IMG/VR virus record: IMGVR_UViG_3300044918_000111
Span: 1 to 57,787 of that record
DNA length: 57,787 nucleotides
Direction: 5' to 3' (one strand)
DNA from: a virus
Lineage: Duplodnaviria > Caudoviricetes
In this document: piece by piece, positions 26,101-57,787 of the stretch
Position numbering within the stretch: position 1 is the stretch's first letter
How the letters are laid out: each line of letters opens with the position of its first letter
The notes under the pieces: model-generated
What the model was told of the DNA's origin: nothing
Seen by the model: only the letters and a program-made list of their open reading frames with translations
Databases searched by the model: none
Translations under genes and position numbers: made by a program

Positions 26101-26834
26101 GTGTCAAAGTGTGGCGACTCAGTCTTCGTCCCAGCGCGCGACTGGTCGCATGACCCTGGGGCTGACGTGTCCTTTGCGGGCGGCTACCGTGTCGGCGAAG
26201 TCGGCTTCTTCGCAGAGCATCATGGCCCGGTAGCTGGGGTAGGTTTCGTTGCAACCCTCACAGGTGTATCCGATGTCGGTGCGTGCGGCGGCGGCAACAG
26301 CTTTGATGTCGCTCACGGTTCCTCCATCAGCACGCCGTTGTGCCAGGTGCGGTGTTTGGGTGCCCATCCTGCTGGTGTGGCCGGTGGGATGCGGGTGAGC
26401 GTCCATACGATGGCGGGTTGCCAGATCGTGTAGGCGAGGATGCTGAGGGTGATGCCGGCTGCGACGCCGAGGATGGTTCTCATTGCAGTGCCAGACAGGC
26501 GAGTGTGAAGTCGGGGTCGGATTCGAGCCAGGGTTGCCGTTTGGCGAGCTCGAGCATGGCGTCGAGTGTGGCCGCCCATGTCATGCCGAGCATGGTGCCC
26601 CCGTTCGGGTGAGGACTGCTGGGATCGAAGGGGAAAGAGTGCCCGACCGCGTGCCCGTGCTGTGTCGATTCTCGAGACGGAGGGGTCGGGAAGATGCGCC
26701 CCGTTCGGGTCGTGGACGGTGCTCCGTCTCGCCGTTCGGGGTCTTCTGTGAGGGGTGCACCATCGCGGCATCCGGGAAGCGTGTACTTGGCCTGTCGGCT
26801 CAGTCGCTTATCCGGTCGCGTTGACCTCGCATTG

Positions 26835-26908
26835 TGCCGCCACGAGGTCTCGAACCCCGCACCCTCCGCTTACAAGGCGGACGCTCTAGCCAGATGAGCT
26901 ATGGCGGC
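26835..26908 (-). tRNA. tRNA-Thr(TGT), CCA not encoded
   Basis: Full cloverleaf: acceptor GCCGCCA/TGGCGGC, D stem GCTC/GAGC, anticodon arm TCCGC-CTTGTAA-GCGGA, T arm CGGGG-TTCGAGA-CCTCG, A73. Confidence 0.95.
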
Positions 26909-27079: not shown

Positions 27080-27107
27080 AAAAAAGCCACCCTCGTGATG
27101 AGTGGCG
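27080..27107 (-). terminator. Intrinsic terminator at the early/late junction
   Basis: GCCACTC-ATCAC-GAGGGTGGC followed by T6. Confidence 0.7.
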
Positions 27108-48309: not shown

Positions 48310-49349
48310 GCCCGCCTGCGGAGAAGGAAGACACCACCGAGAACAGCGACCACCGCGACCCCGACCGCGATGACAGGGATCTCCATGCCGGAGTTCGCAA
48401 GCTCACAGTCCAGGTCACCGACGAGGTTCGGGGCGACAGCGAACGTGGCCGTCGTGTCGTCCCCGGTGACAGTCCAATAGCTGCCGTCCGGGGTAGGGAG
48501 GGCGCCGAGCTTGTAACCCTCATCGACGGTGAACGTGAACTCGGTCGTGTTGGTGAGTTCGACGTCACCGCTGACCGGTTCCCCGTCGCGGCTCCACGAC
48601 CCATTGCTGATGGTCGGGAGGGTGAGAACAGCCGGCGTGTACACCGGCTGTTCGGCGACACATGTCCCGGTAGCGAGCTGCAGTGTCGGGGCAACGACCT
48701 CGACGACCTGACGGCAGTCGAGCCCCCAGAGATCGGATTCCTGGACGGTGTAGGTGCCGTTCTCGGTCACCGTCTCCACCGACTTGACCGTGCCGTCCCA
48801 CTTGAACTTCGTGACCTTCACCTGGCGTGTGCGATCCACCACATCCCCGACCTGGCTGTCACAGGTGAACACGACCTGCGACCACTCACCCGGTTCGATC
48901 AGGTCAGGCGGGGTCTGGCACCCCGTACCGACCGGTTCCTGACCGCCCTCACCGAAATGCTGGTTGTAGCCCTTGTTCGTGTGGATCTGCACCCACGTGA
49001 CGCAGAAAGGTTCCTTGGCGTTGAACCCACCCAGCGCCTCCCACGGCAGGAACGACTGCCCGTAGAACTGGTTTCTGGGGTCTTGATGATTGAACGGCAG
49101 ATTCCGCCACTCCGGGTTGTTCGGATCGGCGTACTTCGACTCGAAATGAATCGAGTACGTCTTCCCCTTGTCGTCACGCACGTTGACGTGCGAAGCGTCC
49201 GTGAACACGTCAACGTCCGGCAGGTAGATTCCCTGCGTGGTGACCGTGTATGGGGTCGGGCCATCCGAACCAGATGCCTGCGCGGGCAACGCAGCCCCGA
49301 GGACAAGGGCGACCGCAGCGACCGCCCCGACGATGAACTTCTTGAACAT
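48306..49349 (-). CDS. Secreted cell-wall-anchored protein
   Basis: Signal peptide ending AQA; C-terminal LANSG, hydrophobic helix, RRR. Confidence 0.8.
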   Translation of the reverse strand: MFKKFIVGAVAAVALVLGAALPAQASGSDGPTPYTVTTQGIYLPDVDVFTDASHVNVRDDKGKTYSIHFESKYADPNNPEWRNLPFNHQDPRNQFYGQSFLPWEALGGFNAKEPFCVTWVQIHTNKGYNQHFGEGGQEPVGTGCQTPPDLIEPGEWSQVVFTCDSQVGDVVDRTRQVKVTKFKWDGTVKSVETVTENGTYTVQESDLWGLDCRQVVEVVAPTLQLATGTCVAEQPVYTPAVLTLPTISNGSWSRDGEPVSGDVELTNTTEFTFTVDEGYKLGALPTPDGSYWTVTGDDTTATFAVAPNLVGDLDCELANSGMEIPVIAVGVAVVAVLGGVFLLRRRA

Positions 49350-49454
49350 GATCTCTCCCCTGTTGAACTGACGGCCCGGACAGGCCTTGGTATGAGAACG
49401 AGGCACGACGAAACGTCAGTGTCTTGTGATTCACGGTTGATAAGGCCGTGCCCC

Positions 49455-49505
49455 TGGTGCCGCCGCCCGGACTTGAACCGGGACGATGCCTTCACACTCG
49501 GCGGC
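49455..49505 (-). ncRNA. Mini tRNA-like element lacking an anticodon arm
   Basis: GCCGCCG-16nt-CCCGG TTCAAGT CCGGG-CGGCGGC-ACCA. Confidence 0.75.
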
Positions 49506-49593
49506 TGTCGCATCTACTCAGGCCCCATGCGACGGCGGGGTGGACGACTCCCTTGGCGCGAACAGATACGCGCATCCCGGAAGCTCCTGAGGT

Positions 49594-49872
49594 CTATGCG
49601 ATGTCGTAGCCCATGTCCTTGAGGGCGTCCGCGTGTGATTTGTGTGCGGCGAATCCGATCTCGCCCCAGTCGGCAATCTCGCCGTCCTCGGTCGCAGGGA
49701 ACACCATCGTTTCCGACGTGCGGTAGTTCGCGGGATGGAATCCTCCGAAGTCCAGATCGACCGCCGATGCGATGACCAGAACCGTTTCGTCTTCCATCGG
49801 GGGGTCGAGGCGATACAGCGCCGCATCGCCTCGGAAACCGGTCAAGCTTCGAACCTTCGTTGCAGTACCCAT
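49594..49872 (-). CDS. Hypothetical protein bracketed by tRNA-like elements
   Basis: 92 aa with a GAGGTG RBS. Confidence 0.75.
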   Translation of the reverse strand: MGTATKVRSLTGFRGDAALYRLDPPMEDETVLVIASAVDLDFGGFHPANYRTSETMVFPATEDGEIADWGEIGFAAHKSHADALKDMGYDIA

Positions 49873-49901
49873 CTCTCACCTCTTTCATGCAGTACTTCTG
49901 C

Positions 49902-50290
49902 GTGCGCCCGGTGGAGTCGAACCACCGCTTAGACCGTCAGCGCTCCCGGGCCGTTCCTAACGAGTCGTCAGCACGCCTCTACGTGCCTCGTCGTCGTGTG
50001 CAGACTCACCGCGCCGAATGGCATGAGGAACGGTGAACGCATAGCTCCCAGGACAAACTTGTGCGCACCCTCAGGTGCGTCTTTCCCTTCGACCCCCAGA
50101 TCCCCGGCACCACTATCGCCCGGTTCACCAGCGCTCACACCCAAACAGGTGCCTCGCTTACGTGGGTTGTATTCGTCATCCGCATCGAAGCCGAGCCGTG
50201 GAGGGCCAGGGCGTAACGGTTGAGTTGTAATCGCCCCGAAGGGTCGACGAGTAGCGGGTAAATCAGTGCGACCTACCAGCCGGATCAGAT
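49902..50290 (-). ncRNA. Candidate structured ncRNA ending in a T-arm
   Basis: No credible ORF; several helices, a C(UUCG)G loop, GGTGG-TTCGACT-CCACC. Confidence 0.5.
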
Positions 50291-50298
50291 GTCGGGGA

Positions 50299-50457
50299 TC
50301 AGCCGGGGTGGTGCCCAGTCCTCTCAAGGACGTCCAGGCCCGTCAGAGACTCAGGGTCAGGGTCCGGGGCTGCGTCACGCAGAATCAGGACGATCAGCAG
50401 CGTCCACAGGAAGATCGCCAGGGGGACGAACAGCCACGGAGAAATGGTGTCGATCAT
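50299..50457 (-). CDS. 52-aa membrane protein (below the ORF-track cutoff)
   Basis: MIDTISPWLFVPLAIFLWTLLIVLILR…; ATGA-coupled. Confidence 0.6.
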   Translation of the reverse strand: MIDTISPWLFVPLAIFLWTLLIVLILRDAAPDPDPESLTGLDVLERTGHHPG

Positions 50458-50852
50458 GAGTCGCCCCCTACGATCGGGGAATGACAGTAGACATTCACTA
50501 CGACGGCAGGACGTTCACCGAGGTCTCGGCCACCGCCGAAGAGGTGTACGCGGGACTTCAAGAAATCGTTGAGTCCGACGCCCGACACGGAATCTTCGAG
50601 ATCATCACCGCGACCGGCTCCGTCGGCATCTACGTCAGCCCGCACATTCCCGTCGCGGTCGAGACCGGAGCGCCAAACCCGAGTCCTGGAACGAAGCCGA
50701 TCATCAGACGCATCCGCTGACACCATCGCTGCCTGGATCTCATCAGCACGACGCCGAACGGCATCCTGCATCATCCGCCTCTCGACGAGCTCGACAGCCC
50801 GATCCTCGACCTCGCCCGTGTCAGGGGTGAACACCCACGCCTCGCCGGTCAT
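50454..50852 (-). CDS. Hypothetical 'bridge' ORF overlapping an antisense gene
   Basis: ATGA-coupled at both ends. Confidence 0.5.
   Translation of the reverse strand: MTGEAWVFTPDTGEVEDRAVELVERRMMQDAVRRRADEIQAAMVSADASDDRLRSRTRVWRSGLDRDGNVRADVDADGAGRGDDLEDSVSGVGLNDFLKSRVHLFGGGRDLGERPAVVVNVYCHSPIVGGDS
50481..50720 (+). CDS. Leaderless antisense gene
   Basis: TACGAT, 6 nt, ATG; 79 aa with globular-looking composition. Confidence 0.65.
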   Translation: MTVDIHYDGRTFTEVSATAEEVYAGLQEIVESDARHGIFEIITATGSVGIYVSPHIPVAVETGAPNPSPGTKPIIRRIR

Positions 50853-51574
50853 GCTGACACCGCCGCGCGGACCGTCAGCCCGAGCTTCTGAGCGATGAAG
50901 GGGATGCCAGTCGGGCGAACCTTCGTCGTCTCGTAGGCGTGCCCGTTCTTGGAACCGGGGACGATCACGAAGTGGTGTGCGTACCGCTGGTATGGCCTGG
51001 TTCCGGTCGCCATGATGACGCCGTGGCCACGCAGCATCCGGTACAGGGTGTTCCTGCCGACGCCGAGGATGTTCCCGACCGCGCCCACCTGGTAGTACCC
51101 GTCAGCATCCATCCACTGGTCGTAAGCATCCACCTTGGGCGCATCGGCAGTGATCTTCGCTTCCAGCGCCTCGGTGCGCTCGACGTTCTCCGCAAGCTGC
51201 CGCAGCGCGTCCGCATACGACTTCGGCAACGCGTGCTCGACCTCCACCTGACGAAACTCGCCAGTGCGACGAATCTGCGGCAGAACCTCATGCGTCACCC
51301 AGCGCTTAAACTCGACCGCGCCAGGAACCCGAGACTGGAAGATCAACTCGTACAGGCCAGCCTCGCTGACAGTCTTCGCGGACTGAGTACGCCCCATCGA
51401 GTCGATGATGTCGGCAATGCCGACCCCATCCTGATCAAGCCGGCTGATCGCATCACGGCCATTCCCGAGACCGAGAGCATGGGTCACGTCAGCGGCCACG
51501 AACCATGGCTCGCCGTCAACGATGACCGTCCGCACCTGCTGGCCGGCGTACTGGAAGATGTCGAGGGCGGTCAT
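50849..51574 (-). CDS. BRO-N / ANT-C antirepressor
   Basis: GEPWFVAADV, SEAGLYELI, FKRWVTHEVLPQIRRTG, DAPKV. Confidence 0.93.
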   Translation of the reverse strand: MTALDIFQYAGQQVRTVIVDGEPWFVAADVTHALGLGNGRDAISRLDQDGVGIADIIDSMGRTQSAKTVSEAGLYELIFQSRVPGAVEFKRWVTHEVLPQIRRTGEFRQVEVEHALPKSYADALRQLAENVERTEALEAKITADAPKVDAYDQWMDADGYYQVGAVGNILGVGRNTLYRMLRGHGVIMATGTRPYQRYAHHFVIVPGSKNGHAYETTKVRPTGIPFIAQKLGLTVRAAVSA

Positions 51575-51771
51575 GACCGCACCTCCACTCGGCCAGCGTC
51601 GATGATTGCTTCGACCTCGGACCGCTTGTAGTAGACGGCGCGTGTCCCGGGCACCTTGTAGAACGGGTAGATGCGCCGCTCGTACCGCAGCTGCTTGAGG
51701 CGATCCAGAGATAGCTGGGTGAGTTCGGACGTTTCCTCCGGAGTGATCCGATCGTCGGATACGGCGCTCAT
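51571..51771 (-). CDS. Excisionase-like wHTH protein
   Basis: ITPEETSE…LRYERR…FYK…VYYKRSEVEA; second gene of the early operon. Confidence 0.7.
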   Translation of the reverse strand: MSAVSDDRITPEETSELTQLSLDRLKQLRYERRIYPFYKVPGTRAVYYKRSEVEAIIDAGRVEVRS

Positions 51772-52007
51772 GCTGCTACCGCCTGCCGCTGAAACTGCGG
51801 TGGCGTGAACATACTCGGAGAGACTCCCAGAGCGTCTGCAATGAGGAACAGCTCGGAGAATGAGAACTCTGTCTTCCCCGCGACCTTGCGGTTCAGAGTC
51901 GGGTACGGGATACCGGTTTCATCGGAGAGCGAGGTCTTGGATCGACCAGCGTCTGCGATGGCCCCTTGGACTGCCTTCGCGGTCCATTCGATGATCGGGT
52001 TGCTCAT
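51768..52007 (-). CDS. Cro-like HTH regulator
   Basis: LSDETGIPYPTLNRKV…IADALGV; divergent from the repressor. Confidence 0.85.
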   Translation of the reverse strand: MSNPIIEWTAKAVQGAIADAGRSKTSLSDETGIPYPTLNRKVAGKTEFSFSELFLIADALGVSPSMFTPPQFQRQAVAA

Positions 52008-52110
52008 GTGAACAATCTACGTGCTCATCTCGACATCCGTCAAGGCTTCTGCTATATCGATTCGGGCATTGCGGTTGTCCGATTTGATTAGTATGGTGTT
52101 CCCATGAACA
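52001..52110. promoter_or_regulatory. Lysis/lysogeny switch: two divergent leaderless promoters and five 14-bp operator-like sites
   Basis: TTGACG-18-TAGATT-6-ATG (cro); TTGCGG-17-TATGGT-6-ATG (repressor); related sites at 52001, 52022, 52055, 52076, 52097. Confidence 0.75.
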
Positions 52111-52523
52111 TTCGACAGCGCGCCGAAACCTTCTCCCGCTACGTGGGACTTGAGCTCAAGGGAAAGATCACTTCCCAGGAGTTCACCGCCAAAGCGGTGG
52201 CCGAGGGGATCGGGCGCCAGCCGGCAGCGTTTAATCGTTGGCTCAACGGCAAGGTGGAACTGCCGATGACAGTCCTGTGCGAGGTGTGCGAGTACATCGA
52301 CATTGAGCCCGCGAAGGTCGTTGAGGACGCATACGCACGACTGGCAGTGGAGTTCGGCGAACGCGACGGCCGAATCTACACAGGGTCAGACTTCGATGAG
52401 CTTGTGGACGGCGGAGAGAACGTCATCGGCAAGCCCGATGTCCCTGCTCCATCGGAAACTAGATCGGACTATGTACGGGTTGCGAAAAAGCGGTCCACAG
52501 ACCGGGGATGGGACCTTCAATGA
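52104..52523 (+). CDS. Immunity repressor (XRE HTH)
   Basis: TAKAVAEGIGRQPAAFNRWLNG; upstream of the ImmA-like gene and integrase. Confidence 0.85.
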   Translation: MNIRQRAETFSRYVGLELKGKITSQEFTAKAVAEGIGRQPAAFNRWLNGKVELPMTVLCEVCEYIDIEPAKVVEDAYARLAVEFGERDGRIYTGSDFDELVDGGENVIGKPDVPAPSETRSDYVRVAKKRSTDRGWDLQ

Positions 52524-52969
52524 TCGAGCATCTCTTTGATATGGCCGACACGCTCGGCGTAGTCATCGAGTACGGTGACCTGTCGCACCTCGAGCGCGAC
52601 GGCGACTACGACTTCGAGACACACACCATACGGCTGCAGGAAGGCGTCTCGTACCGCCTGCTCCGCTCCACCTTGGCGCACGAATTGTGCCACGCAGTGT
52701 TCGGGGACGTGCCGTCGAAGTTCGGCCCAGTGAACGCCAAGCAGGAGCGTCGAGCAGACGAGTGGGCGGCACTGCGGCTCATCGATCACCGCGAGTATCG
52801 AATCATCGAGGAGCACCGCGACGGGAACGTTCAACTCATCGCACAAGATCTTGACGTCACCGATGACATCGTGAAGGCGTACCAGCGAATACTGCTGCGC
52901 GTAGGTGAGAACGTCTACATCGGCCCCCGTCTGGGTTCCGGTCAATGGGAGTCGAAGGTGGCAGTCTGA
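52520..52969 (+). CDS. ImmA/IrrE-family metallopeptidase
   Basis: RSTLAHELCH (HExxH)…QERRADEWAA…IAQDLDV. Confidence 0.9.
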   Translation: MIEHLFDMADTLGVVIEYGDLSHLERDGDYDFETHTIRLQEGVSYRLLRSTLAHELCHAVFGDVPSKFGPVNAKQERRADEWAALRLIDHREYRIIEEHRDGNVQLIAQDLDVTDDIVKAYQRILLRVGENVYIGPRLGSGQWESKVAV

Positions 52970-54063
52970 TGGCCGGCACAGTCACTCCATACGAGACGGC
53001 GGCTGGCACGCGGTATCGCGTGCGCTATCGGAAACCGGATGGTGCGCAGACAGACAAGCGAGGGTTCACGACGAAGCGCGACGCCAGGCTGTTCCTCTCC
53101 ACAGTCCACGTGACGAAGGCCCGCGGCGAGTACATCGACCCCACGGACGGGAAGCGCCTCGTATCCGATCTCGCAGAGACATGGAAGCGGGCACGACTGG
53201 GGACCCTGAAGCCTTCATCACGCAACACAATGGAGACCGCCTGGCGCATCCACGTCGAGCCAGAGTGGGGTTCACGGAAGGTCAGCACGATCCGTCGAAG
53301 CGAGATCGCCGCATGGATCGGTGACCTGTCCGTCAAGAAGAAGAAGTCCGCTCAGACTGTCCGCCGCGCCATGCTCGTGCTATCCGGAGTTCTCGATGTC
53401 GCTGTTGACGATCGTGCCATTGGCTCGAACCCAGCGAAAGGGGTTGACCTTCCTGCGAAGCGTCGAAAGGAAGCGACTTATCTGTCCCACTCCCAGGTGG
53501 CCCATCTAGTGCGGGAAGTTCAGCATCCCGAACTGGTCGAGTTCCTGGCTTACACCGGGCTCCGATGGGGGGAAGCGGCGGCACTGCGCATTCGCAACGT
53601 CGACCTCAAGGCGCGCACGGCGTTGATCTCGGAGAACGCGGTACTTGTGAAGGGCGCGTACGAGCTCGGCACGCCGAAGTCTGGGAAGGCTCGCAAGATC
53701 GTGTTCCCCCAGTTCCTTGCTGACGGCCTTCTGCGGCTATCGAAAGACCGGGAGGGGTCAGAGTTCCTCTTCGGGGATTCGCAACCTCCCAGGTACCCTC
53801 ACGCCACGTCTGGCTGGCTTGTCGCTGCGGTCGCGTCCTGCCAGTTCGACGACCCGAAGTTTCCGAGCATAACCATGCACGATCTGCGGCACACGGCGGC
53901 GTCGTTGGCGATCTCGGCGGGAGCGAATGTGAAGGCGGTACAGCGGATGCTCGGGCATGCGTCGGCCGCGATGACGCTGGACGTCTACGCGGACCTCTTC
54001 GACGAAGATCTGGGCCACGTCGCGGACGCACTCACCAAGGCCAGATCGGACGCGCTCTCGTAG
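52969..54063 (+). CDS. Tyrosine integrase
   Basis: TGLRWGE, K, HDLRH, LGH, Y catalytic set; N-terminal arm-binding domain. Confidence 0.96.
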   Translation: MAGTVTPYETAAGTRYRVRYRKPDGAQTDKRGFTTKRDARLFLSTVHVTKARGEYIDPTDGKRLVSDLAETWKRARLGTLKPSSRNTMETAWRIHVEPEWGSRKVSTIRRSEIAAWIGDLSVKKKKSAQTVRRAMLVLSGVLDVAVDDRAIGSNPAKGVDLPAKRRKEATYLSHSQVAHLVREVQHPELVEFLAYTGLRWGEAAALRIRNVDLKARTALISENAVLVKGAYELGTPKSGKARKIVFPQFLADGLLRLSKDREGSEFLFGDSQPPRYPHATSGWLVAAVASCQFDDPKFPSITMHDLRHTAASLAISAGANVKAVQRMLGHASAAMTLDVYADLFDEDLGHVADALTKARSDALS

Positions 54064-54175: not shown

Positions 54176-57371
<3,196 letters not shown>

Positions 57372-57787
57372 CGATCCAATCCGTCGCTCACGCGATCAAC
57401 ATCGTCTTGCGTGCCGAATACTTCGAGCCGGTACAAGTGCGGCACATGACACTTGCGGCTGATGATGTCGCCGGCGACGCAGAACGCGTCGCCGAAGTTG
57501 GTGTTGCCTGCGGAGATCACTCCCCTGATGTGATGCCGGTTGCGCTCGTCGTTGAGGAACCGGATCACCTGCTTGGGAACAGCGCCCTTCTCCTCGCCCC
57601 GGCCCTGCCCGCCGCCGTAGGTCGGAGTGACGAGGACGAAGGGCTCATCGACGACCAGCGGCTCATCCGCGCGGTGCAGCGGGATGCGGCGAGCCGGCAG
57701 GCCGAGCTTCTCGATGAACCTGGCCGTGTTGCCCGAGGTGCTGGAGAAGTAGACCAGGAGCGGCGCGGCGGTTGCGACAGCGCTCAT

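Follow-up and report, generated by a model that had tools for sequence, protein, structure and literature searches.

A conserved structured RNA with an adjacent tRNA-like minihelix in temperate phages and prophages of Microbacterium

Why does a 426-nt gap (positions 49873 to 50298) interrupt the early operon of a temperate phage whose genes are otherwise tightly coupled? The question arises in a stretch of 57,787 nt with approximately 63% G+C, the IMG/VR provirus record IMGVR_UViG_3300044918_000111 (here called the window), where the gap separates a 52-amino-acid (aa) open reading frame (ORF; 50299-50457) from the next gene, 49594-49872. A reading made from the letters alone (the sequence-only reading) had placed in 49902-50290 an undescribed, ORF-free phage noncoding RNA of ~390 nt with a tRNA-like end. 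The object is real, smaller than was proposed, and folded differently: a conserved 112-nt core (49943-50054) is followed by a minihelix that consists of an acceptor-like stem and a T-arm. The original observation was thus confirmed and its interpretation partly supported. RNA features are described on the minus strand unless stated otherwise; related loci, genomes, and sequencing runs carry L, G, and X numbers.

Comparison with relatives revealed strong conservation only for the 3′ ~150 nt of the gap (49902-50054), which is the conserved unit in place of the ~390 nt first suggested. The 112-nt core, defined by the extent of a covariance-model match, aligns with 10 other sequences, and of the 11 distinct cores one is that of the window and one that of Microbacterium phage Footloose, six are copies carried by five Microbacterium genomes, and three belong to other genomes. 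Pairing was assessed in two alignments. In a MAFFT alignment (A3), an independent control that comprises only seven sequences, several of them closely related, 92.9% of cells were paired and 13 of 30 pairs had changed on both sides, a result that 0 of 500 column shuffles reached; when the partners were slid by 1 to 3 columns, 34 to 45% of cells were paired. In the alignment of all 11 sequences (A6), whose fit to the model's structure inflates the pair counts, 96.8% of cells were paired and 24 of 29 pairs had changed on both sides, again with 0 of 500 shuffles reaching this and with 32 to 44% paired in the slid controls. Of the two, A3 is therefore the fairer test, A6 being biased towards the modelled structure. 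The compensatory changes, found in five helices across 11 sequences, demonstrate selection on RNA structure, and the many G-U pairs (e.g., at the first P4 pair in 7/11 sequences) establish that the minus strand is the functional one.

From these comparisons, the core is predicted to be a three-way junction formed by P1, P2 (which encloses P3), and P4-P5. P1 pairs CCUGGG (50047-50052) with CCCGGG (49945-49950) and carries two-sided changes in 6/6 pairs across the 11 sequences, with 97.0% of cells pairing. P2 joins UCACCG (50031-50036) to CGGUGA (50006-50011), also with two-sided changes in 6/6 pairs and with 92.2% of cells pairing, and its loop holds P3, a small hairpin GCC-AUUC-GGC (50013-50022) whose two modelled pairs are 100% paired and show two-sided changes. 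P4 pairs GACGA (49991-49995) with UCGUU (49959-49963), strands that lie within the GACGAG/CUCGUU pairing already noted from the sequence; two-sided changes occur in 4/5 pairs, with 100% of cells paired. P5 (49982-49987 with 49970-49975), the hairpin first listed as GCACG(U)/(G)CGUGC at 49987-49970, has two-sided changes in 5/6 pairs and forms, together with the internal loop that separates it from P4, the segment 49965-49989. Fifty columns are invariant in A3, and more than 30 positions of the 113 columns are invariant, many of them unpaired.

The internal loop between P4 and P5 sets G49989 and A49988 against a 3-nt bulge (49967-49969) that is followed by G49966 and A49965. A kink-turn (K-turn) consists of a 3-nt bulge and then tandem G-A/A-G pairs, flanked by a canonical and a noncanonical stem, a consensus that we take the loop to fit. 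The G,A/G,A columns are invariant in the seven A3 sequences except that the first G is U in L135. The K-turn-like pattern is present in seven members (the window, L134, L147, L137, L139, Footloose, and L154), L135 has a variant with U-A at one position, and L153, L155, and L141 differ. In the modelled fold, such a loop would bend P5 so that its GAGG loop meets a CCUC in the loop of P2. That CCUC (50025-50028) belongs to a near-invariant stretch of the P2 loop, UUCCUCAU (50030-50023), and its partner GAGG (49976-49979) belongs to the P5 loop UAGAGG (49976-49981); UUCCUCAU and UAGAGG are each identical in 9/11 sequences, and 97.7% of cells at the putative pseudoknot pair. Two sequences carry the outer C-G pair swapped to G-C. 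In L155, CCUC:GAGG has become GCUC:GGGC, and in L141, which is misaligned by one column in A6 and was read by eye, GCUCA faces UGAGC. It is on these two sequences with the swapped pair that the predicted loop-loop pseudoknot is considered supported.

The sequence-only reading had instead assigned part of these strands to a perfect 8-bp long-range helix, in which CCGUUCCU (50033-50026) is complementary to AGGAACGG (49958-49951). The complementarity is perfect only in the window. Across the 11 sequences the helix is 73.9% paired, 0/8 pairs show two-sided change, and the G-C pair at 50031/49953 occurs in only 1/11. The 3′ half, AGGAACGG, is a junction strand in the three-way fold and is invariant in the seven A3 sequences; the same position reads AGGCACGG in L153 and AGGUACCGG in L154, with UUCCUCAU unchanged. 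The helix would pair UUCCU with AGGAA, thereby using the pseudoknot strand, and it loses pairs in L141, L153, L154, and L155, in each of which AGGAA or UUCCU changes alone. RNAalifold, applied to seven sequences, predicts this helix, yet all of its conserved pairs are invariant there. The 5′ strand of P2 overlaps it and competes with it, and in the fold given above the 5′ strand of the helix is split between the covarying P2 and the loop-loop pseudoknot. We prefer P2 with the pseudoknot because the conserved pairs of the helix in those seven sequences are invariant and the helix shows no compensatory change.

Could the gap encode a protein rather than an RNA? Such a product would come from the 119-aa ORF 49968-50327, which has a TTG start, or from the 51-aa plus-strand ORF 50061-50216. 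Both frames are open in the window, and the plus-strand ORF has a G+C content at third codon positions (GC3) of 0.79. The 119-aa ORF, however, has values of 0.69/0.58/0.57 at its three codon positions, versus a GC3 of 0.73 to 0.80 in the four flanking genes, and yields no Pfam or PHROGs match at an E value of ≤0.01. In the relatives, the aligned frame is shifted by 1- to 2-nt insertions or deletions after ~11 codons, and stops occur in 5/10 of them (L134, L135, L137, L154, and L155). The plus-strand ORF falls in the poorly conserved part of the gap, and the pattern of conservation is that of paired RNA strands. We therefore give a protein almost no chance. By composition and by the broken frames in relatives, the gap 49873-50298 is non-coding, though with the 119-aa frame present it is not ORF-free in the strict sense.

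What lies at the 3′ end of the core? In the window, minihelix 1 (49902-49943) is made of GCGCU (49943-49939), a 12-nt linker, the T-arm GGUGG-UUCGACU-CCACC (49926-49910), the complementary strand GGCGC (49908-49904), and a tail AC (49903-49902) without CCA. Minihelix 2 (49455-49505) comprises GCCGCCG, a 16-nt linker, CCCGG-UUCAAGU-CCGGG, CGGCGGC, and an encoded ACCA. It begins ~90 nt past the stop codon of gene 49594-49872, which is thus bracketed by two minihelices; L140 has the same layout, with a gene between two minihelices. A scan for a 5-bp stem that closes a T-loop-like loop of 7 nt and is flanked by a complementary stem returned, in the window, 49943-49904, 49505-49459, the true tRNA-Thr, and four coding-region matches with TTGAAGA or TTGGACT loops, which were judged to be chance. 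Besides the two minihelices of the window, 12 elements with differing stems in the loci of 11 relatives fit this definition; two true or annotated tRNAs in all and one overlapping secondary match in Footloose were also returned.

The minihelix stands beside the core in L134, L147, L139, L135, L137, Footloose, L155, and L154, and further elements were found in L140 and in the phages Camille and Count. It starts 1 to 3 nt past P1 in 7/11 members and lies ~26 nt downstream in L155 and ~90 nt downstream in L154; L141 and L153 have a plain hairpin at this spot, which in L153 is a perfect 12-bp stem, the length of a stacked acceptor and T-stem. The T-stems vary (GGUGG/CCACC, CCGGG/CCCGG, CGAUG/CAUCG, CUGGG/CCCAG, CACGG/CCGUG, and CAGAG/CUCUG), and the T-loop keeps a UUCRANN-type pattern (UUCGACU, UUCGAAU, UUCAAGU, UUCGAGU, UUCGAUU, and UUCGAGG). 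In the acceptor-like stems, GCGC is kept and the inner pairs change together (GG/CC, AG/CU, U/A, U/G, and G/C). The acceptor/T-arm helix measures 10 to 12 bp, with linkers of 12, 16 to 18, or, in Footloose, 38 nt, the last containing an anticodon-arm-like hairpin. CCA is encoded only in the second element of the window (as ACCA) and in that of Camille; the tRNA-Thr of the window itself lacks an encoded CCA. A related but separate observation concerns a ~68-nt unannotated tRNA-like element common to Camille, Count, and Footloose (L094 1503-1570, L095 1503-1570, and L001 2937-3004, all on the minus strand), in which the acceptor stems covary, a D-arm is lacking, and the anticodon-like arm is extended, with a loop that could present CCU. 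Neither ARAGORN nor Rfam calls it, and its neighbourhood in Count includes an annotated tRNA-Arg and a gene for an RtcB-like RNA ligase.

Is the whole, then, a relative of transfer-messenger RNA (tmRNA) or of YrlA? Every motif that the sequence-only reading named is present on the minus strand where it had been placed, including UGCGUUC (50041-50035) and GGGCGCA (49909-49903), and it had paired these two to close the top half of a tRNA over an inserted domain of ~110 nt. The T-arm is genuine, and the sequence of the window does allow the seven pairs, including two G-U pairs, to be drawn. In L139 and Footloose, however, CGGGGGC takes the place of UGCGUUC and does not pair with the 3′ strands CUGCGC and CCGCGC, so the long-range closure cannot form. 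The local closure of GCGCU with GGCGC, which had been offered as an alternative, occurs in all minihelix-bearing members with coordinated changes at the inner pairs. Like tmRNA and YrlA, the element combines a tRNA-like module with a further structured domain, but here the acceptor-like stem is closed locally and not by the two ends of the RNA, and neither a tag frame nor a Ro-binding stem was seen. The third pair of that stem is G-C, with no alanine-identity G-U at the third position as in tmRNA ends and with no conserved reading frame. ARAGORN found no tmRNA in the window or in L001, L094, and L095. For YrlA and Y RNA, no Rfam family matched the region at an E value of ≤10 (the Y-RNA models of Rfam 15 being unchecked), and the conserved part shows no terminal long stem and no Ro-binding stem. 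With no defining feature of either found, a tmRNA- or YrlA-like RNA closed in this way is very improbable. The RNA is not a tmRNA or a tRNA, and it is probably not a YrlA.

Nor does it correspond to a described family. With Rfam 15 (4,227 models) at gathering thresholds, the whole window yielded only tRNA-Thr (26835-26908), and ARAGORN likewise reported only this tRNA (26834-26908). In a permissive scan of 49400-50800 (E ≤ 10), the check that the sequence-only reading had called for, the only match was mascRNA-menRNA (RF01684) at 49459-49505, minihelix 2, with 27.3 bits and an E value of 0.0055, below the gathering score of 42.5; nothing matched the core. Permissive scans of 13 related loci (E ≤ 1 or ≤ 5) also found nothing on the cores and gave weak mascRNA matches on the minihelices of L134, L135, L139, and L140 (21.5 to 23.9 bits). 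Because all of these lie below the gathering score, the resemblance to mascRNA is one of shape, not homology. Minihelix 1, whose linker is only 12 nt, gave no mascRNA match at E ≤ 10 and no tRNA with ARAGORN or the Rfam tRNA model. A literature search returned nothing relevant on such an RNA in Microbacterium phages or actinobacteriophages. Since neither Rfam 15 nor this search offers a match, we treat the core as a new RNA family. The proposal of an undescribed, conserved phage noncoding RNA with a tRNA-like terminus of acceptor and T-arm is supported.

How widely does the family occur? Among 50,697 phage records, blastn matched only Footloose (two records of one phage), with 75.6% identity over 49940-50059 of the window; there, genes 38 and 39 are separated by an unannotated gap of 743 bp that holds the element, at the equivalent early-operon place and just downstream of the helix-turn-helix (HTH) genes that adjoin the repressor-side genes. 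A DNA search of 401 Microbacterium genomes found any match in 13. The matches span the core in four of these (G444, with two copies, G737, G471, and G521), cover only the first 58 nt at 95 to 97% identity in G594 and G607, and cover only the 3′ tRNA-like part in G503, G647, and G628. Covariance model R1 was built on seven cores and R2 was rebuilt from it; cmsearch scored the window core at 120.6 bits (R1) and 113.4 bits (R2), and a divergent copy in G431 rose from 27.4 bits with R1 to 52.3 bits with R2. Model searches of genome samples returned 3/151 and 4/151 genomes at the genus level, 2/151 at the family level with R1 (G014 and G024), 1/151 at the order level with R2 (G236, which seems to have been drawn already in the family sample), and 0/151 in a sample at the class level. 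A DNA search of a family-level sample gave 1/401 genomes, with a match of 40 nt that was not borne out by the model. As these are samples, the negatives apply to the genomes searched. The three genomes G014, G024, and G236 are probably of the same family as Microbacterium.

Pattern searches added little. An exact 19-mer returned no stretch among viral contigs; a 14-mer returned 36 stretches among viral contigs, none similar past 15 to 19 nt by blastn; and a 16-mer returned 55 among genome contigs, none similar past 18 to 23 nt. A gapped pattern gave 4 stretches in viral and 31 in metagenome contigs, none homologous, and a 20-mer from the 3′ tail recovered only contig L131, which was already known. 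A three-block pattern found one provirus, L148, with the same model score and listed flanking ORFs as L147. Searches for related loci with neighbouring proteins gave no relative with the DUF7572-like protein and one locus, L131, with the 52-aa protein; L131 has the same slot and the same 3′ end and no core. All members of the RNA family found so far thus belong either to Microbacterium, in its temperate phages and prophages, or to the three further genomes.

In the window, annotation with Pfam and PHROGs identifies, on the plus strand, a tyrosine integrase (52945-54063), an M78-type peptidase (52508-52969), and an HTH repressor (52104-52523), and on the minus strand a cro-like HTH protein (51768-52007), an Xis-like HTH_17 protein (51571-51771), and a Bro-N/KilAC antirepressor (50849-51574). 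The 52-aa membrane-type ORF (50299-50457, minus) lies just upstream of the gap, and a DUF7572-like ORF (49594-49872, minus; 24.5 bits, under the Pfam cutoff of 27) lies downstream. In all loci with a readable context, the element is on the same strand as the early operon and beside repressor/cro-type HTH, antirepressor, or Xis-like genes, 0.5 to 2 kb downstream of the immunity switch, and the genes that follow it differ and are unrelated among members. A site on the minus strand that resembles a promoter by consensus match alone (TTGACG-18-TAGATT, 52014-52043) precedes the cro-like gene; one such site was found versus 1.3 expected in shuffles, which alone is not significant, and it is a candidate start of an early transcript that would include the RNA ~2 kb downstream. 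From this site, minus-strand genes continue through the recombination and structural genes, from ~52.0 kb down to ~5 kb. Within 49300-50600, a scan detected neither a promoter-like site nor a terminator on the minus strand.

What could the element do there? Our preferred reading, in which our confidence is evenly balanced, is that a new structured phage RNA has its end set by tRNA-processing enzymes at the minihelix. The RNA would be transcribed together with the early lytic operon, whose strand it shares, ~2 kb downstream of the cro-side promoter-like site, and the host tRNA-processing machinery would read the minihelix, with RNase P acting on its 5′ side and trimming on its 3′ side. Cutting of the polycistronic transcript would leave the core either as the protected 3′-terminal domain of the upstream RNA or as a released small, stable RNA, and minihelix 2, 400 nt downstream, would bracket the next gene likewise. 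The core, with its long invariant unpaired stretches, may, speculatively, bind a specific partner such as a protein, RNA polymerase, or a small ligand.

The proposed logic is that of MALAT1/mascRNA and of mitochondrial tRNA punctuation. According to three reports, RNase P cleavage at a tRNA-like element generates the structured 3′ end of MALAT1 (PMC8457004, PMC4824109, PMC13170383). The 3′ ends of MALAT1 and MEN-beta share with our element the succession of a structured domain and a tRNA-like element without a normal anticodon arm, and mascRNA-menRNA is the only Rfam model with weak minihelix matches. They differ in being eukaryotic and nuclear, and their upstream domain is a U-rich triple-helix element for nuclear expression, whereas here a junction and a pseudoknot are predicted and cleavage is a proposal only. 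In mitochondrial polycistronic transcripts, tRNAs between genes serve as cutting signals (PMC3790967). The window likewise has tRNA-shaped elements between genes, with 49594-49872 bracketed by minihelices 1 and 2, but the minihelices are not functional tRNAs, most copies lack an anticodon arm, and processing here, too, is only proposed.

A precedent within phages is provided by the C4 RNA of P1/P7 and the CI RNA of P4, small immunity RNAs of temperate phages that RNase P excises from an operon transcript via tRNA-like features. They lie in the immunity or antirepressor region of enterobacterial phages and act by antisense pairing to nearby targets. The core differs from them in that no sequence or model match was found with Rfam at E ≤ 10, and no antisense target was found here, none having been sought.

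Several observations weigh against this proposal, in addition to the limits of the two alignments given above. The T-loop is not universal, being UUGGACU in L135, a 6-nt GCCAGU loop in L141, and a plain hairpin in L153, so that recognition as a tRNA cannot be taken for granted. Just before the putative RNase P site, A, C, and G occur without preference. Minihelices also occur without this core, in L131, L140, and L142, and the core and the minihelix may for that reason be functionally independent. Because a simple hairpin would suffice to protect a 3′ end, the mechanism leaves the elaborate core unexplained. Folding energy lends no help either: the z score is +1.15 for 411 nt of the minus strand, with 91 of 100 shuffles folding as well, −0.85 for the core with the minihelix (49902-50054), and −0.41 for the 5′ 244 nt (50055-50298); that of the plus strand is +0.04. 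The sequence-only reading had named folding no better than shuffles, together with a lack of covariation, as grounds for giving up the RNA; the former is what was found, and covariation is present. Sequencing data are similarly noncommittal. The stretch is contained in 24 runs, of which 6 are labelled as RNA, and in the four RNA-labelled runs examined it was covered by assembled contigs at a low, even depth of ~2 to 16, like the neighbouring genes, and these runs may contain DNA. In run X21, the ends of two contigs coincide exactly with 49904 and 49459, where the 3′ strand of each minihelix has its last base, an occurrence in one run that was not counted as evidence; contigs bridge 49904 in X22 and X23 and bridge 49459 in X23 and X24.

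The main rival, to our minds unlikely yet deserving of attention, is that the core is a cis-acting RNA for processive antitermination or other cotranscriptional regulation, as in HK022 put, Bacillus EAR, and conjugative elements. The nascent core would bind RNA polymerase and allow it to read through terminators in the lytic gene array, and the minihelix or hairpin would serve for pausing, termination, or processing. The placement suits such a role, early in a one-strand array that runs from ~52.0 to ~5 kb, 0.5 to 2 kb past the immunity switch wherever a locus was read, and independent of the gene that follows. A canonical terminator-like site (27106-27086, minus) lies inside the array, and in Footloose and L136 a hairpin with a U-rich run, read by eye, lies ~120 nt or more downstream of the non-coding region. 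A strict scan, however, found a terminator within 1.5 kb downstream in only 1/11 loci (L134), the hit in Footloose lying inside a tRNA-like element, and terminator-like sites are not enriched in the window (8 versus 12.4 expected and 9 versus 5.1). Antitermination would also leave the conservation of the T-loop unexplained, and the core is similar in sequence or model to no Rfam family. The put RNA is two stem-loops of ~70 nt, in contrast to the predicted 112-nt junction and pseudoknot here, with no sequence similarity and no demonstrated terminator context. What the HK022 put, EAR, and conjugative-transposon RNAs share with the core is that they are cis-encoded structured RNAs placed early in a long mobile-element operon independently of neighbouring genes, and one report describes put RNA acting alone on RNA polymerase (PMC9378689). 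Another deals with termination and antitermination in Tn916 (PMC11658703).

Alternatively, the core might sense a host metabolite or signalling nucleotide, with the GC-rich helix behind it as the expression platform for early genes. An aptamer-like junction, a K-turn-like bend, a pseudoknot, and the more than 30 invariant of 113 columns speak for such a riboswitch, as does the start of the helix 1 to 3 nt after P1. Combinations of a K-turn and a pseudoknot occur in known riboswitch aptamers, and in the SAM-I, c-di-GMP-II, and lysine aptamers a bend lets a hairpin loop reach a distant strand beside a conserved junction. The core would share with these the bend-inducing loop, the loop-strand contact, and the conserved junction nucleotides. 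It differs in that no Rfam riboswitch matched and the downstream genes are not conserved. Members bear unrelated genes downstream, which is unusual for a riboswitch and makes this a weaker rival; no terminator U-tract follows the helix, the ribosome-binding site lies 20 to 30 nt beyond and is not obviously sequestered, and an expression platform has no need of a T-loop. We consider a riboswitch improbable.

Returning to the RNA with an end set at the minihelix, how much of the gap belongs to it? The 5′ part (50055-50298) is poorly conserved, with a mean column identity of 39% over nine sequences, and is a candidate for inclusion in the same RNA as the core. Its recurring pieces are only local: a 58-nt module, a hairpin with a stable tetraloop, a ACAACUCAAC-like stretch, and a hairpin just before the core. 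The 58-nt module (50241-50298) directly follows the upstream stop codon and is 95 to 97% identical in L136 and L138. The CCC-UUCG-GGG hairpin lies at 50243-50234 and the ACAACUCAAC stretch, whose like recurs in relatives, at 50219-50228, and the pre-core hairpin CGCACC-UGAG-GGUGCG (50079-50064) recurs with changed stems in L139 and L141. The 5′ module also has a conserved TAnTyG, which was discarded as a possible −10 element because it is without the final T and follows a hairpin.

Loci that share one part of the gap carry different others. L136 and L138 (minus, ~1560-1100) share the 58-nt module, and their downstream middles differ; L131 (2600-2990, plus) shares the upstream 52-aa protein and the 3′ tail around a different middle. 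The non-coding region ends, by eye, with a hairpin and then a U-rich run in L136 and Footloose. Because loci that share the 5′ module or the minihelix carry unrelated middles, the slot behaves like a cassette. In L140 (~1425-1500, plus) and L142 (~1440-1500, plus), a second, unrelated conserved middle lies immediately upstream of a minihelix of the same type; one stem changes on both sides between these two loci, and the middle may represent another RNA family.

Such shuffling of 5′ module, middle, and minihelix among prophages would also fit a functionless relic, either the remains of a decayed tRNA gene or a scar, from an attachment site or from recombination, between mosaic modules, and the minihelices do resemble tRNAs with internal deletions. 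The core, however, has no similarity to tRNA, and compensatory changes have accumulated in five helices across 11 sequences, which leaves a relic with very little probability. An attachment site was rejected: the element is internal to the prophage, ~3 to 4 kb from the integrase end, and for that reason it is not a split site.

Some features of the neighbourhood merit separate mention. In the window (50299-50457), L139, L141, and L131, the ORF immediately before the non-coding region specifies a membrane-type protein of 52 to 73 aa, and these proteins share an acidic, PDPD/PDPE-like C-terminal part; the protein of the window has no Pfam or PHROGs match at E ≤ 0.01. Between it and the antirepressor gene, ORFs overlap on opposite strands (50454-50852, minus, and 50481-50720, plus), neither with a family match at E ≤ 0.01, and the plus-strand ORF has the more coding-like GC3 (0.76). 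Farther along the array lies the tRNA-Thr(TGT) gene (26834-26908), just upstream of which, on the same strand, is a terminator-like hairpin with a T run (27086-27106, minus). Beyond the integrase, ORFs in 54176-57787 have a GC3 of 0.92 to 0.94, versus 0.73 to 0.85 inside the prophage; owing to this shift, they are probably host genes, with the prophage ending near 54.1 kb.

What, then, would the element mean for these phages? Noncoding RNAs with complex folds, comprising a junction, a bend, a pseudoknot, and long invariant unpaired stretches, are rare and have in the past proved to be riboswitches, ribozymes, or components of RNA-protein machines. With 11 sequences and a narrow distribution, the family is of limited general reach until its function is known. 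It is directly testable because Footloose and its host, Microbacterium paraoxydans, are a cultivated pair. A bolder reading, to which we lend modest credence and which is more probably wrong than right, makes the core the sensor or effector RNA of a new class, housed in a swappable early-operon "RNA cassette" of temperate Microbacteriaceae phages. It would pace the lytic programme or counter host defence through binding to RNA polymerase, to a host factor, or to a signalling nucleotide, the minihelices would punctuate the transcript for host tRNA-processing enzymes, and the copy with ACCA could be a decoy for toxins that attack tRNA 3′ ends. If this were true, a bacterial virus would possess a tRNA-punctuated, RNA-based regulatory layer, and punctuation by tRNA look-alikes would be the bacterial-virus counterpart of mitochondrial punctuation and of the mechanism that forms the MALAT1/mascRNA 3′ end.

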